Assembly (NCBI GenBank): GCA_943359365.1
Contig: CALRHG010000003.1
Coordinates: forward strand, 1 to 41,773
Source of the DNA: Candidatus Nomurabacteria bacterium
GTDB lineage: Bacteria; Patescibacteriota; Minisyncoccia; Phycocordibacterales; UBA9973
Length of the DNA stretch: 41,773 bases
Direction of reading: 5' to 3'
Part shown: piece by piece, positions 6,680-41,770 of the stretch
Numbering within the stretch: position 1 is the stretch's first letter
Layout: every line of letters starts with the position of its first letter
Position numbers and translations under genes: made by a program
The notes under the pieces: model-generated
What the model was told of the DNA's origin: nothing
Database searches by the model: none
Seen by the model: the letters and a program-made list of their open reading frames with translations, nothing else

Positions 6680-8785
<2,106 letters not shown>

Positions 8786-8834
8786 TTACATTGGCTAGCG
8801 CAAAAACTCTCAAATATCCTTATTTTTGGCAACT

Positions 8835-8876
8835 AAAAAAGCCAGCGCAGTCCTTCCGGAGCAACGCTGGTCTTTT
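8835..8876 (-). terminator. Rho-independent terminator upstream of gyrB
   Basis: Minus strand CCAGCG-TTGC-TCC GGAA GGA-CTG-CGCTGG followed by C-TTTTTT; a small hairpin CGAGCA/TGCTCG (8882-8900) precedes it. Confidence 0.75.
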
Positions 8877-8908
8877 CGATTCGAGCAGATAAGGTGCTCG
8901 CTCCTTCA

Positions 8909-9013
8909 TTAGAGCCCGTCTCGAGCATCCGTAAATGCGGAACTCTGGGAATGAGCTTTGTTGAACTTAGCGATGCGCTTGCGCGCATTTTGTAAGAACT
9001 TATTTGATTTCAT
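8909..9013 (-). CDS. Possible 34-aa basic small protein MKSNKFLQNARKRIAKFNKAHSQSSAFTDARDGL
   Basis: ATG overlaps the end of the upstream ORF, ends TAA TGA just before the terminator; below the ORF-track cutoff. Confidence 0.35.
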   Translation of the reverse strand: MKSNKFLQNARKRIAKFNKAHSQSSAFTDARDGL

Positions 9014-9323
9014 GATTTTCTTGCTCGATTTCCGCTGGCATCGACTCCTCTAGGCACTTCATAACACCCACATAAGCTTCATGGGTAATAAGGCATTGCC
9101 TAAATGCTTCCTCTAAAGCTTCGTTGACATTCGTCATGTTCTGCCCATCGAAGTCTTCTGACCCTTTGAATCTGACCTCTTTCTGATCCGCTAAAGAAAC
9201 ATGGACTCGGCCACTAGAGTACGAAATTTGAATCGTGGCTATGTGAAGTTCCTTTTTTGTAAGCAGCTCAATAATTTCCGGTTTTAACACACATTCCTCC
9301 ATTATTAGATTTTCAACGACCAT
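9000..9323 (-). CDS. Hypothetical acidic protein (107 aa)
   Basis: ORF track 9000-9329; SD-like GAGGTG 5 nt before ATG at 9323; flanked by a structured leader and a terminator. No family recognised. Confidence 0.65.
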   Translation of the reverse strand: MVVENLIMEECVLKPEIIELLTKKELHIATIQISYSSGRVHVSLADQKEVRFKGSEDFDGQNMTNVNEALEEAFRQCLITHEAYVGVMKCLEESMPAEIEQENHEIK

Positions 9324-9407
9324 ATCCACACCTCGAACAATTCGAGGCTGGTGGATATGTTTCTAGTGTTTCTTGGAGACTACAAACGCATTCAGCAACC
9401 TCAAATT
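9321..9407 (-). promoter_or_regulatory. Translational switch: RBS-sequestering hairpin (9321-9359) and competing anti-sequestrator (9384-9407 with 9339-9362)
   Basis: CATATCCAC/GTGGATATG plus CCTCGAA/TTCGAGG stem covers SD and AUG; the upstream 24-mer can pair with the 5' arm at 21 of 24 positions including G-U. Confidence 0.75.
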
Positions 9408-9464
9408 ATTTTGGGTAAGGAGGAGGCCAAGGAGGTTATTAAATTTTAAGTTTATATTTTTCAT
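9363..9464 (-). CDS. Leu-rich leader peptide 2, MKNINLKFNNLLGLLLTQNNLRLLNAFVVSKKH
   Basis: Manual translation: 9 of 33 residues Leu, core CTC CTT GGC CTC CTC CTT; stops next to the RBS hairpin. Confidence 0.6.
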   Translation of the reverse strand: MKNINLKFNNLLGLLLTQNNLRLLNAFVVSKKH

Positions 9465-9477
9465 GTTGTTTTTAAGT

Positions 9478-9516
9478 AAAAAGAAGAAAACCAGCCCTTG
9501 GAAGGCTGGTTTTCTT
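9478..9516 (-). terminator. Attenuator-type intrinsic terminator
   Basis: 13-bp perfect stem AAGAAAACCAGCC/GGCTGGTTTTCTT followed by CTTTTT; 5' arm also complementary to 9541-9562. Confidence 0.85.
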
Positions 9517-9564
9517 TGTAAGTGTTTGTTTTAAGTGTTTTTACAGCGAAATATCAGCCTTCAA

Positions 9565-9621
9565 TTATTTGAGGCTGAGGAGGAGGGCTCCAGTATTAAT
9601 TTGCTGTGTTTTTTGCTTCAC
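9565..9621 (-). CDS. Leu-rich leader peptide 1, MKQKTQQINTGALLLSLK (GTG start, apparently leaderless)
   Basis: CTC CTC CTC AGC CTC AAA TAA overlaps segment 1 of a 1:2/2:3/3:4 structure; GTG is 6 nt after the -10. Confidence 0.62.
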   Translation of the reverse strand: MKQKTQQINTGALLLSLK

Positions 9622-9627
9622 GATTAG

Positions 9628-9672
9628 ATAATAGCATTTACCGAAAAATTGTAAATACATAAATGTGGAAAA
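9628..9672 (-). promoter_or_regulatory. Sigma70-type promoter with upstream DnaA-box-like site
   Basis: TTTACA (9655-9650), 16 bp spacer ending TGC, TATTAT (9633-9628); TTTTCCACA at 9672-9664. Confidence 0.6.
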
Positions 9673-9738
9673 CCATTCCTATCTAATTTTCTAGCATATG
9701 CGGAAATCTTAGATAAGCATTATTTATAGAAATAAAAT

Positions 9739-11520
9739 CTACCTCACCTGCCAACTTTTGGCTTTAATCTTTTCCGCAATTTTTTCCATAATTTTATTTA
9801 TTTCTTCGTCGGTCAGAGTTCTTTCGTACGACTGAAAAACTAATCTGAAAGCATAAGAAACTTTTCCGTCTTTCTTGAACTCATCAAAAAGCTCCGGACC
9901 TTTTATCACCATGTCACCCATGTTTTCTTTAATTATTTTTAGCACTTCAGTGCTTTTTACATTTTCTGGGACAAACACGGCAATATCTCGCGCGATGAAT
10001 GGGAAGAGGGACCACATCTTGAATTTAGCTTCTAGGTTCGAGCTTCTAGGTTCTAAGGGAAAATCTTTTGGCATATCCTTACAAAATTCTTCCAATTTTA
10101 TTTCTTTTATTTCTTTTTTATCTCCATAAGCAACATGCATTTCTTCCCCGCCTTTTTTAAATATAGTCCCAATCTCAAAAACTTTCACCTTGTCGATTCC
10201 TAAAAACGGAGCATTAAGTTGGTTTAATTTTATGCTTTCTTTTAGCCCGTCAGCCAGATTTGTTCTCAGAAATTTCTTATCCGAGGCGCTATTTTGCACT
10301 TCTACTTCACCCTTGTTAGCAAAAGCGTAGGTCATCACCTCCGAGTATCCTTCAGAAAGCAATTTATTTCTCGCCCAAGTTATTTTCGCGTAAGTCTCAT
10401 TTACCTTCGGCTTGAAATTTATTTTAGGAATATTTCCCTTCACTTTGTCATACCCGAGGATCCTGACCACTTCTTCCGCCATATCTTGTTCGGTAGCCAA
10501 ATCTAGGCGCATCGGCGGGACAATAATATCGAAAACTCCTTTTTTTAATACGTATTTAAATAAGTATCTTTTTAAAATATCTTCTATCTCTTTGTCGGAG
10601 ACTTTTAGTCCTAAAATATTTGAAATTCTATCCGTGGAAAAATAAAACTTACTCTCCTTTTGTTTATCTGGATATACATCTACGATATCTTCAAACTGAG
10701 CCTCGGGACACATTTCTAAAATGAGCGCAGAGAGTTCGCGCATTGCATACGGAATTAATTCCGGAGATAAATCATTCTCAAATCTTTTTCGTCCTTCGGT
10801 AAACATATTGAGGGTCTGCCCCATTTTCCTGACGGATACTGGATTAAAATTATCAATCTGTAAAATTATGTTCTTTGTATTATTATCCAATTCAGCCAAG
10901 GTTCCTCCCTTTACGCCGGTACCTATCGCATTCCCTTCCGCATCGTAAATAGCGACCATGCCTTTTTGCAACTCTTTTTGAGCTCCGCCCAGAAAAGAAA
11001 TTTTCTCGCCATCTGAAGTGTTTATATCAAGCTTGAGTCCTTTGACTTTGTCCATGTCAAAAACATGGCTTGGCTGGCCGCAATCAAACATAACTATATT
11101 GGTAGCATCCACGATGTTATTTATGCTCCTTTGTCCGATTGATTCTAAATGTTGAACTACCCAGTCCGGAGACGGACCAACTTTTATATTCCGAACAATC
11201 CTGGCAGCATCTCTGCGGCATTTCTCCGTGTTAATTTCAACTTTTAATTTTGTCGGCCCTGATTCCGAAATTTTGTATTTCGGAGTAGGATCTACATATT
11301 TTATATTGAGCAACGAAGAAATTTCGCGAGCCATGCCTTGATGGCTGAGCAGATCATGCGCGCGGTTCGGCAATATTTTTACGTCAAGAATAAAATCGCC
11401 GTCCGGCAATTTTTCAACGGTCTCCACTTCCGCCAAGTGATATGTCAAAATATCAGCTATCTCTTCCGCCTTTGGCGCATCGGGCACATACCATTTAAGC
11501 CAATTGTAAGAAATTTTCAT
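9739..11520 (-). CDS. pheT: Phenylalanyl-tRNA synthetase beta subunit, short form (593 aa)
   Basis: MKISYNWL, PNRAHDLLSH, INNIVDATN, RLDL...DMAEEVVRILGY, C-terminal FDX-ACB (RDIAV...ERTLTDEEIN). Confidence 0.93.
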   Translation of the reverse strand: MKISYNWLKWYVPDAPKAEEIADILTYHLAEVETVEKLPDGDFILDVKILPNRAHDLLSHQGMAREISSLLNIKYVDPTPKYKISESGPTKLKVEINTEKCRRDAARIVRNIKVGPSPDWVVQHLESIGQRSINNIVDATNIVMFDCGQPSHVFDMDKVKGLKLDINTSDGEKISFLGGAQKELQKGMVAIYDAEGNAIGTGVKGGTLAELDNNTKNIILQIDNFNPVSVRKMGQTLNMFTEGRKRFENDLSPELIPYAMRELSALILEMCPEAQFEDIVDVYPDKQKESKFYFSTDRISNILGLKVSDKEIEDILKRYLFKYVLKKGVFDIIVPPMRLDLATEQDMAEEVVRILGYDKVKGNIPKINFKPKVNETYAKITWARNKLLSEGYSEVMTYAFANKGEVEVQNSASDKKFLRTNLADGLKESIKLNQLNAPFLGIDKVKVFEIGTIFKKGGEEMHVAYGDKKEIKEIKLEEFCKDMPKDFPLEPRSSNLEAKFKMWSLFPFIARDIAVFVPENVKSTEVLKIIKENMGDMVIKGPELFDEFKKDGKVSYAFRLVFQSYERTLTDEEINKIMEKIAEKIKAKSWQVR

Positions 11521-41680: not shown

Positions 41681-41770
41681 GGACAGATGGGTGAGTGGTT
41701 TAAACCAGCGGTTTACTAAACCGCCGTTCCCTTAAAAGAACCGTGGGTTCGAATCCCACTCTGTCCGCCA
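41681..41770 (+). tRNA. tRNA-Ser(ACT)
   Basis: Acceptor GGACAGA/TCTGTCC-G-CCA; anticodon arm GCGGT-TTACTAA-ACCGC; long variable arm; GTTCGAA T-loop. Confidence 0.9.

Follow-up and report, generated by a model that had tools for sequence, protein, structure and literature searches.

A candidate leaderless, ribosome-mediated transcription attenuator with leucine codons in the pheT-gyrB interval of a Candidatus Nomurabacteria genome

What a pair of short open reading frames (ORFs) with runs of leucine codons do in front of a gene of no known function is the question raised by the interval between pheT and gyrB in a Candidatus Nomurabacteria bacterium. The window, the whole stretch of DNA that was analysed, comprises 41,773 nucleotides (GenBank contig CALRHG010000003.1, assembly GCA_943359365.1) and is contig C3 of a 664-kb genome (G000) that consists of 46 contigs and is 90.6% complete. 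The cassette lies on the minus strand and is self-contained within the 980 nt between the two genes. Organisms of the Candidate Phyla Radiation are regarded as minimally regulated and as reliant on others for their amino acids. The classical attenuators of E. coli (pheL-pheA, leuL-leuABCD and trpL) represent the leader-peptide mechanism of amino-acid operons. A sequence-only reading of the locus had proposed a tandem attenuator acting at two levels on the decoding of leucine codons. The minus-strand features that it listed (promoter, leaders, terminators, hairpin and ORFs) are all present, although the stem of terminator 1 measures 15 bp and not 13.

The first 146 nt of the cassette (module 1) are best explained as a ribosome-mediated transcription attenuator of a genus-wide family with a mechanism based on stalling at leucine codons, to which we assign a probability of about 0.62. 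The parts of this reading differ in strength. It is very likely that module 1 is of the functional type of a ribosome-mediated transcription attenuator, and it is plausible, at slightly better than even odds by analogy with its relatives, that the copy in the window senses leucine. In the proposed mechanism transcription would start at the G of GUG 9621 and yield a leaderless leader mRNA. With no ribosome stalled, the conserved core (segment 2) would be bound by segments 1a and 1b or lie beneath a ribosome that sits at the stop codon; segment 3 would then pair with segment 4 and transcription would stop at about 9478. When charged tRNA-Leu is scarce the ribosome would stall on CUC CUC CUC AGC CUC and cover both 1a and 1b. 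The core would then pair with segment 3 to form an antiterminator, allowing RNA polymerase to read into module 2 and the orphan ORFs.

Family and alternative pairings of module 1

Module 1 (9621-9476) is one of three copies found by a DNA search of its own genome. The copy on contig C1 is flanked by a glutamine-amidotransferase gene and by the gene of a class IIb aminoacyl-tRNA synthetase (aaRS), and the copy on C7 directly follows a reverse-transcriptase-like gene, ahead of a small ORF and a murB-like ORF (named from sequence). Common to all three are a -10 box followed after exactly 6 nt by GTG, the nearly invariant core GAAGGCUGAUAUUUGCGCUGUAAAA, an A/C-rich linker and a strong terminator. 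The reverse-transcriptase-like ORF (335 aa; L005 1650-2657, corresponding to C7 9042-10049, minus strand) was judged by eye from its N-terminal sequence; 8 nt separate its end from the downstream start codon of the C7 attenuator, and its stop codon overlaps the attenuator's -10 box. The idea of a diversity-generating or retron repeat beside this gene was rejected, as the copies differ by indels and non-A-specific changes and all three are intergenic and carry promoters.

The family is restricted to the genus. Allowing up to three mismatches, the 25-nt core is present in 72 of the 201 sampled genomes of the genus (a count that includes the unpublished G076 and G147, both excluded from the family analyses) and a reversed control pattern in none; in 297 genomes representing 189 further genera of the order the core was not found. 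An exact degenerate 20-mer matches 77 stretches among 185,579 species genomes, nearly all of them Patescibacteria-type metagenome-assembled genomes (MAGs), and the approximately five matches outside this group compare with about nine expected by chance according to our own estimate. Relatives with this element are publicly available MAGs that go under the labels Candidatus Nomurabacteria, Paceibacterota or Patescibacteria. The family set comprises 99 distinct instances from 66 published genomes, with the core-positive genomes G201, G048, G111 and G173 left out. At least eight other genomes also have modules in tandem, at distances of 380-600 nt, so that the serial arrangement is a family trait. 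A scan of the window with Rfam at gathering and E-value thresholds returned tRNAs only and no relevant leader family: Phe_leader (RF01859) reached 17 bits against a threshold of 55, and neither the Leu leader model nor the T-box and other riboswitch aptamer models gave a match.

The features of the cassette exceed chance. The region 8500-10000 contains seven promoter-like and four terminator-like sites, compared with 3.1 and 1.3 in shuffled sequences, and the fold of module 1 as a whole has a z-score of -6.7.

The segments of module 1 show the 1:2, 2:3 and 3:4 logic of classical attenuators. Pairings were tested on a MAFFT alignment of the window copy and 80 family members that was not fitted to any structure, with slid partners and shuffles as controls that ignore kinship. 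The 23-nt core is complementary to UUACAACUCAAACACCAGCCUUC, which spans the end of the linker and the 5′ arm of the terminator, and 19 of the 23 positions pair. Cells of the alignment in this core:segment 3 helix are paired in 80.3% of cases as against 30-44% with the partner slid, and 26 are changed on both sides compared with 15.5 in shuffles. The family terminator is paired in 89% of cells with changes on both sides at seven of ten pairs. Hairpin P2, formed by segment 1b and the core, is paired in 83.5% of cells against 10-50% when slid, and helix P1, formed by segment 1a and the 3′ half of the core, in 77% (81 sequences). Strong covariation is confined to the terminator, and that of the other helices is weak. 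Median RNAfold energies of the 5′ domain, antiterminator and terminator are -18.0, -13.6 and -15.4 kcal/mol, respectively. The 5′ domain pairs a median of 18 of the 23 core bases with upstream sequence, and is more stable than its upstream-shuffled version in 78 of 81 sequences. The sequence-only reading had proposed folding the leader with and without a ribosome footprint on the leucine codons. When the window copy is folded up to segment 3, a footprint on these codons leaves the antiterminator at -17.5 kcal/mol and one on the stop codon leaves none (-4.5). In full-length folds the terminator prevails.

Leader frames, amino-acid runs and the genes behind them

A leader was called where a -10 box (at least four of six matches) is followed 5-8 nt downstream by ATG or GTG. 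This combination is found in 84 of the 99 instances, and in 81 of these the frame is open from the start codon to the core, giving leaders of 20-32 codons; the other three are spurious picks. The distance between -10 box and start codon is 6 nt in 75 of the 81 leaders, the start codon is GTG in 59 and ATG in 22, and 61 have a TG extension of the -10 box. An extended -10 box exactly 6 nt from GTG or ATG implies a leaderless mRNA. Of 602 long ORFs throughout G000, 118 have the motif TAnnnT exactly 6 nt upstream of their first in-frame start codon, compared with 14-48 at every other spacing, and Shine-Dalgarno (SD) 4-mers are rare. Leaderless mRNAs thus seem to be common in this genome and look like a general habit. 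In silico, the leader is probably a short ORF that can be translated from the start of the transcript.

The leaders end at or near the core in three ways. Sixty-three stop at the UAA that ends the core (..RRLIFAL), eleven at a UGA inside it (..LEG), and seven at a UAG or UAA just ahead of it. The consensus ..UAGAAGGCUGAUAUUUGCGCUGUAA has a stop codon in all three frames, so that a leader in any frame terminates in or next to the core. Orthologues of the window's leader read on as ..LLLSLKSRRLIFAL to a stop codon. In the window a ribosome at the leader 1 stop codon would still cover GAAGGCUG. The short ORF could also be imagined to produce a functional hydrophobic peptide, type I toxin-like or membrane-bound and ending in RRLIFAL, with the hairpins merely providing a terminator. 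The consensus MNKNIQAN-hydrophobic-RRLIFAL is indeed kept in 63 of 84 instances. However, RRLIFAL is absent from 18 of the 81 leaders, including that of the window, which finish in different frames (with ..LEG or ahead of the core). The core is therefore conserved at the RNA level; the hydrophobic stretch has just 5-8 residues and the core is complementary to segment 3. RRLIFAL was consequently rejected as a conserved arrest or functional peptide, and this explanation is extremely improbable.

The attenuator reading draws further on the amino-acid runs. Three or more identical residues in a row occur in 36 of the 81 leaders (Phe in 24, Leu in seven, Ser in three, Met and Tyr in one each), whereas in 1000 shuffles of the residues of each peptide the mean is 9.8 leaders and the maximum 20. 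The run starts 22-28 nt before the core in 33 of the 36, immediately before segment 1b or overlapping it. Because the run lies between segments 1a and 1b, a stalled ribosome would cover both. Leucine runs are written with CTC (13), CTG (four), TTG (four), CTA (three), TTA (one) and CTT (one). Leaders of the Leu type found in the window also occur in G013, G112, G167, G145 and G135. Leader 2 of the window reads CTC CTT GGC CTC CTC CTT and its counterpart in G135 CTG CTG GGC CTT CTC CTA, both encoding LLGLLL. The synonymous changes argue that the residue is conserved and not a pyrimidine tract or a particular tRNA species; in sequence terms this points to selection on the residue rather than the RNA sequence in the Leu runs. 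G000 encodes tRNA-Leu(GAG), and CUC, with 18% of leucine codons, is not rare. The specificity for CUY codons and tRNA-Leu(GAG) put forward in the sequence-only reading is therefore not supported, given the six codons in related runs, although the leaders of the window themselves use CUC and CUU and a tRNA-Leu(GAG) gene does exist.

The codon choice also bears on the possibility that the product is the terminated RNA itself (about 145 nt), a trans-acting small RNA (sRNA) whose CCUCCUCCUC tract binds SD sequences. Attenuator-derived sRNAs such as rnTrpL are reportedly known (PMC6614838), and the two roles are compatible with each other. The RNA has its own promoter and a strong terminator, the CU-rich tract is complementary to GGAGG, and in the free fold of module 2 a CCUCC in the leucine codons pairs with the SD sequence. 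In paralogues, however, the tract is UUUCUUUUUC, AUGAUGAUG or others, so that the anti-SD potential is not conserved and a conserved anti-SD role of the CU tract was rejected. In addition, Leu runs include CUG, UUG and CUA, and the reading frame is conserved. An sRNA function is very unlikely.

The strongest argument for amino-acid sensing through ribosome stalling comes from Phe runs in front of Phe genes. Prephenate dehydratase (PDT) is found in 11 of 201 genus genomes, including the unpublished G076 and not G000. Six of the ten published PDT genomes have a Phe- or Phe/Tyr-rich leader with a terminator before the PDT gene or aromatic operon. G062 shares the pheT-gyrB interval of the window, and there the order is pheS, pheT, a leader (..VVKKVTTKTSF..), asd, an ORF, a second leader (..NVFFFSPQF..), chorismate mutase, PDT and gyrB. 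G058 has an FFF leader ahead of a class IV aminotransferase and a PDH/PDT fusion. The leaders of G048 (..TFFFTGFFF..), G125 (..YFFFFSFW..), G013 (..INFFYFYPLY, then stop) and G050 (..WLNNYFFGFF..) have divergent cores. The remaining PDT genomes are fragments (G129, G090) or have a different leader-like region (G114, G172). The conserved family before Phe and aromatic genes, together with the full anatomy of module 1, supports the earlier assignment as a ribosome-mediated attenuator.

Two observations concern regions of other kinds. Upstream of PDT in G114 (L193 6280-6577) and G172 (L194 6230-6525) lies CCCUGGAGUAAGGAAU..GAGCUC..GAGCUCGUUCUUUU with short F/Y-rich ORFs, outside the attenuator family. 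In G013 (L197 5400-5560) a short ORF, MMIFNKFRIININKSMKFWRGAEASAFALFC followed by a stop codon, precedes a hairpin and a 512-aa ORF and may be a leader of a different type; it follows a gene whose C-terminal sequence resembles TrpR/YerC by eye.

A comparable link between run and gene is not found for leucine in the leuB family search and among downstream ORFs. The leuB family occurs in one of the 201 genus genomes, as a fragment at a contig end, and no genes for leucine synthesis turned up in the genus. Every Leu-run leader observed stands in front of ORFs without known function. Cognate genes lie downstream of Phe-type relatives and not at the window. The description of the lineage as generally lacking amino-acid biosynthesis thus agrees with the leuB result but not with the 11 genomes that keep PDT.

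These data also allow for a general translation-coupled attenuator that responds to the overall speed or availability of ribosomes, during any starvation or exposure to ribosome-targeting compounds, and not to leucine, the hydrophobic stretch being no specific sensor. Leaders without a run keep a hydrophobic stretch of NUN codons, which can be mixed (e.g., FFIIGILF, AFLLISL or VAVIKTSF), and the regulated ORFs are orphans with no tie to a single amino acid. Homo-amino-acid runs are nevertheless about 3.7 times as frequent as in shuffled peptides, Phe or Phe/Tyr runs precede Phe or aromatic genes in 6 of the 10 genomes, and Leu identity is preserved through synonymous changes. We regard this alternative as unlikely.

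Module 2, the orphan ORFs and their surroundings

The coordinates of the cassette and its flanking genes are compiled in Table 1.

Table 1. Features of the pheT-gyrB interval in the window
Feature	Position	Strand	Description
pheT	9739-11520	minus	Pfam B3_4, B5 and FDX-ACB domains
Promoter P1	9628-9655	minus	-35 TTTACA, 16-nt spacer, TG-extended -10 TATTAT; 6 nt between end of -10 and GTG 9621
Leader ORF 1	9565-9621	minus	MKQKTQQINTGALLLSLK, then stop; GTG 9621, UAA 9567-9565; probably leaderless with GUG start
Segment 1a	9598-9607	minus	ACAGCAAAUU; 5′ strand of helix P1, partner is 3′ half of core
Leu run of leader 1	9585-9571	minus	CUC CUC CUC AGC CUC; 4 Leu in 5 codons, overlaps segment 1b
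Segment 1b	9569-9578	minus	UCAGCCUCAA; 5′ strand of hairpin P2, pairs with core GAAGGCUG; overlaps last Leu/Ser codons
Conserved core (segment 2)	9541-9562	minus	GAAGGCUGAUAUUU-CGCUGUAA; 1-nt deletion relative to family consensus
Segment 3	9501-9521	minus	UUACAAAGAAAACCAGCCUUC; core complement (antiterminator) and 5′ arm of terminator
Intrinsic terminator 1	9476-9516	minus	15-bp stem (9516-9484), 3-nt loop, U tract 9483-9476; -21.5 kcal/mol, z = -6.7
Leader ORF 2	9363-9464	minus	MKNINLKFNNLLGLLLTQNNLRLLNAFVVSKKH, then stop; 33 aa, diverged tandem copy of leader
Leu codons of leader 2	9434-9417	minus	
Core-like segment 2′	9405-9380	minus	
Hairpin	9321-9359	minus	17 bp, CA bulge; 5′ arm is segment 3′, 3′ arm is post-terminator motif GAGGUGUGGAUAUG with in-frame AUG 9323; -24.0 kcal/mol, z = -6.4
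Conserved post-terminator motif	9310-9321	minus	GGUCGUUGAAAA
SD and orphan main ORF	9000-9300	minus	SD GGAGGA (9300-9295); 96 aa from GTG 9290; alternative starts GTG 9329 (109 aa) and AUG 9323 (107 aa); end at 9000
Basic ORF	8909-9013	minus	34 aa, ends ..DARDGL, then stop; overlaps end of main ORF
Closing terminator	8835-8876	minus	-21.8 kcal/mol, z = -2.9; just upstream of gyrB promoter
gyrB promoter	8797-8769	minus	
gyrB	6680-8758	minus	

Sequence comparison shows modules 1 and 2 to be true paralogues, and a different species (G135) has retained the pair. The view that one module has been used twice is thereby confirmed, leader 2 being a diverged tandem copy that differs from that of G135 by only synonymous changes in its leucine codons. 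Module 2 is not detected by nhmmer with the family profile; its kinship is suggested by the pairwise alignment with G135 and by the similarity of its peptide (MKNINLKFNNLLGLLLTQNNLRLLNAF..) to the family pattern MNKNIQAN-run-..RRLIFAL. Both a core-like segment and a segment 3′ (CACCAGCCUCGAA) are present in it. Where the second ATG of the tandem pair in G135 is preceded 6 nt upstream by TATAAA, the window has CTTAAA. Leader 2 has no SD sequence and a poor -10 box (CTTAAA or TACTTA). In G135 segment 3′ has its own partner and the second hairpin carries the motif GGGGUGUGGGUAUG. Module 2 of the window is about 36 nt shorter between the hairpin arms, and owing to this loss segment 3′ now pairs directly with GAGGUGUGGAUAUG.

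Motifs behind the terminator are shared within the family. A 9-nt motif, GGGUGUGGA (up to two mismatches), follows the terminator in 35 of 99 members and is found in 11 of 99 upstream control windows, and a UGUUCGUUGACAA-like motif is present downstream in 34 of 99 instances compared with 1 of 99 upstream controls. They lie before the downstream SD sequence, at 9337-9310 in the window and at 1585-1625 in L004. The reading frame of the motifs differs among copies, which indicates conservation at the level of RNA or DNA.

The folds of module 2 disagree with each other. In the free fold CCUCC of the leucine codons pairs with the SD sequence at 9300-9296, and when the leucine codons are masked the 17-bp hairpin forms. 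The hairpin was previously taken to hide both the SD sequence and the AUG. It does hide the in-frame AUG 9323, but does not include the likely SD sequence and GTG 9290. Where the main ORF, given before as a 107-aa ORF, starts is uncertain; the ORF itself is present, and GTG 9290 is where the only relative aligns. The second tier may add translational control. An AND gate of transcriptional and translational control is not supported, as leader 2 lacks an SD sequence and a good -10 box and the hairpin probably misses the real SD sequence and start.

The main ORF is an orphan. The 96-aa product has no Pfam match and among 5.8 billion proteins matched only itself. Across 41 genomes (G000 and 40 relatives) one weak match besides its own was found, in G013, so that the collection of homologues envisaged earlier yielded a single weak relative. 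The alignment with the G013 protein begins at GTG 9290, which has GGAGGA ahead of it. For the 96-aa product an alpha-beta3-alpha fold is predicted, with a predicted local distance difference test (pLDDT) score of 82.7. Matches in the PDB were weak (phage Acb4 with E = 2.8e-3, then double-stranded RNA-binding domain folds) and were not used to assign a function. The small basic ORF ending in ..DARDGL is common to G000, G050 and G112 and always adjoins a family member; besides the window copy it lies at approximately 1019-1260 of L015 and in L021.

Elsewhere in the genus the terminator is almost always followed by a small, poorly conserved ORF and a further terminator, and then by a separately promoted housekeeping gene (gyrB, a class IIb aaRS gene, prs or others). 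Seventy-six of 85 downstream ORFs have no Pfam family, and the few matches are biosynthetic or probable neighbouring genes. As a rule, intact leaders in the genus are followed by cassettes of orphan ORFs. Phe-type leaders most often have as their cargo an 18-member family of small Cys-containing proteins (70-115 aa, no Pfam family). Its pattern is ..EWF..LTVPPRxTxLPCGC..F..RR..GxWVH..C, and it is seen after Phe-run leaders and before a class IIb aaRS gene in L016, L017, L020, L034, L041, L051, L052 and others.

The pheT-gyrB interval could also be a decaying relic in which an ancestral biosynthetic cassette was lost and the leaders now stand idle before spurious or young ORFs. In G062 this interval has asd and chorismate mutase-PDT behind its two leaders. 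In the window the leader has a premature stop codon and the core a 1-nt deletion, module 2 has lost about 36 nt in comparison with G135 and its -10 box is poor, and the main ORF has a single weak relative. Against decay, the promoter, the open leader frame, P2, the antiterminator and the very strong terminator are all intact, G135 conserves the arrangement in two modules as well as the Leu residues of leader 2, and orphan-ORF cassettes behind intact leaders follow the rule of the genus. On balance a relic is improbable.

Two further features lie outside the cassette. A second possible extended -10 box (TGCTAGAAA) is located at 9687-9698 (minus), about 65 nt upstream of promoter P1 and just past the pheT stop codon; this TGCTAGAAT box also stands upstream of the aaRS gene and the murB gene (contigs C1 and C7). 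At 41681-41770 (plus) of the window ARAGORN calls a tRNA-Ser with the unusual anticodon ACT, which has an Rfam tRNA score of 58 bits.

Weight of the reading and known systems

The attenuator reading of module 1 is carried by its anatomy and conservation, the open leader frames, the alternative pairings and, in relatives, the link between Phe runs and Phe or aromatic genes. The components of a classical attenuator are recognizable in silico: a leader ORF, tandem codons positioned to mask segment 1, mutually exclusive pairings and a terminator with a U tract. A number of points weigh against it. The transcription start, translation of the leader, stalling, the response to leucine and any role of module 2 are steps that we infer. 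A search of public sequencing runs listed no RNA run that contains the region. Instances were gathered through the core, whose conservation is therefore by construction. The covariation of hairpin P2 is not significant, with 76 of 500 shuffles reaching the observed percentage of pairs, and the weak covariation in helix P1, P2 and the antiterminator reflects segments that barely vary. In full-length minimum-energy folds of the window copy the 15-bp terminator wins whatever is masked. Without a ribosome and up to segment 3, the antiterminator (-21.5 kcal/mol) and the 1:2 fold (-21.0) are iso-energetic. Any switch must thus be kinetic, as it is in textbook attenuators. Leader 1 of the window stops at a UAA 5 nt before the core, which is one base short, and 45 of the 81 leaders have a hydrophobic stretch only and no run of three or more identical residues. 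The downstream genes of the window have no leucine link and neither a Pfam match nor a homologue among 5.8 billion proteins. Finally, we know of no demonstration of efficient leaderless GUG initiation or of transcription-translation coupling in this phylum.

On a wider scale, it is conceivable, if doubtful, that this auxotrophic, ultra-small lineage runs a 'ribulon'. A leaderless scaffold would be re-coded with Phe-, Leu-, Met-, Tyr- or Ile-rich stretches, often in tandem, and placed before fast-evolving genes for orphan small proteins, so that the external supply of amino acids is read by stalling. If so, stalling would switch on dedicated small effectors rather than biosynthesis. Apart from this wider reading, the family indicates that the Candidate Phyla Radiation uses the classical ribosome sensor in leaderless form, with one RNA scaffold carrying leaders with different amino-acid runs, and that the device has outlived the loss of biosynthetic genes and now fronts orphan small ORFs. 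The family also offers a testable handle on nutrient sensing and a compact natural attenuator module for in vitro study.

In the full-text literature searched (covering few subscription journals and no supplements) no paper was found on attenuation or leader peptides in Patescibacteria, the Candidate Phyla Radiation or Nomurabacteria. What is new is the combination of a putatively leaderless design with one conserved, genus-restricted scaffold that mostly fronts orphan small ORFs where the corresponding biosynthesis is lacking. Leader-peptide attenuators of ilvB, leu and trp in Actinobacteria and Corynebacterium, outside the Proteobacteria, have reportedly been predicted by comparative genomics (PMC1262725, PMC11857589, PMC10272879). 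Unlike the present family these precede cognate biosynthetic operons, and their sequences differ.

The family resembles classical attenuators in having a short leader ORF with tandem codons for the same residue, mutually exclusive 1:2, 2:3 and 3:4 hairpins and an intrinsic terminator before the regulated genes. It differs in that the leader mRNA is predicted to be leaderless with a mostly GUG start, and in that a single conserved 23-nt core with stops in three frames provides a common scaffold for different runs. The Leu copy in the window fronts small orphan ORFs within a genus that yielded no Leu synthesis genes, and no Rfam leader model matches here. The likeness to the E. coli pheL attenuator (PMC3082878) extends to the genes, since Phe leaders in relatives precede chorismate mutase and PDT.

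Two serial short ORFs in one leader, each expected to affect stem-loops, are also reported for the tandem attenuators of the Salmonella mgtCBR leader (PMC3641672). In contrast to the two unrelated ORFs of mgtCBR, module 2 is a degenerate duplicate of module 1 and its translation is putative.

The closest described system is formed by the mycobacterial polycysteine attenuators with leaderless short ORFs (sORFs), for which the term 'ribulon' is used (Canestrari et al., bioRxiv 10.1101/834739). Both have leaderless sensory sORFs, predicted as such in the present family, that begin with a 5′ AUG or GUG and contain a tract of codons for a single amino acid, and in both several loci follow one design, which here too would give regulon-like control through ribosome pausing. 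An sORF at the transcription start, typical of the mycobacterial Cys type, is found here in silico. In contrast to the mycobacterial loci, the first tier ends in an intrinsic terminator, the phylum and the sequences are different, and the targets are mostly orphan ORFs.

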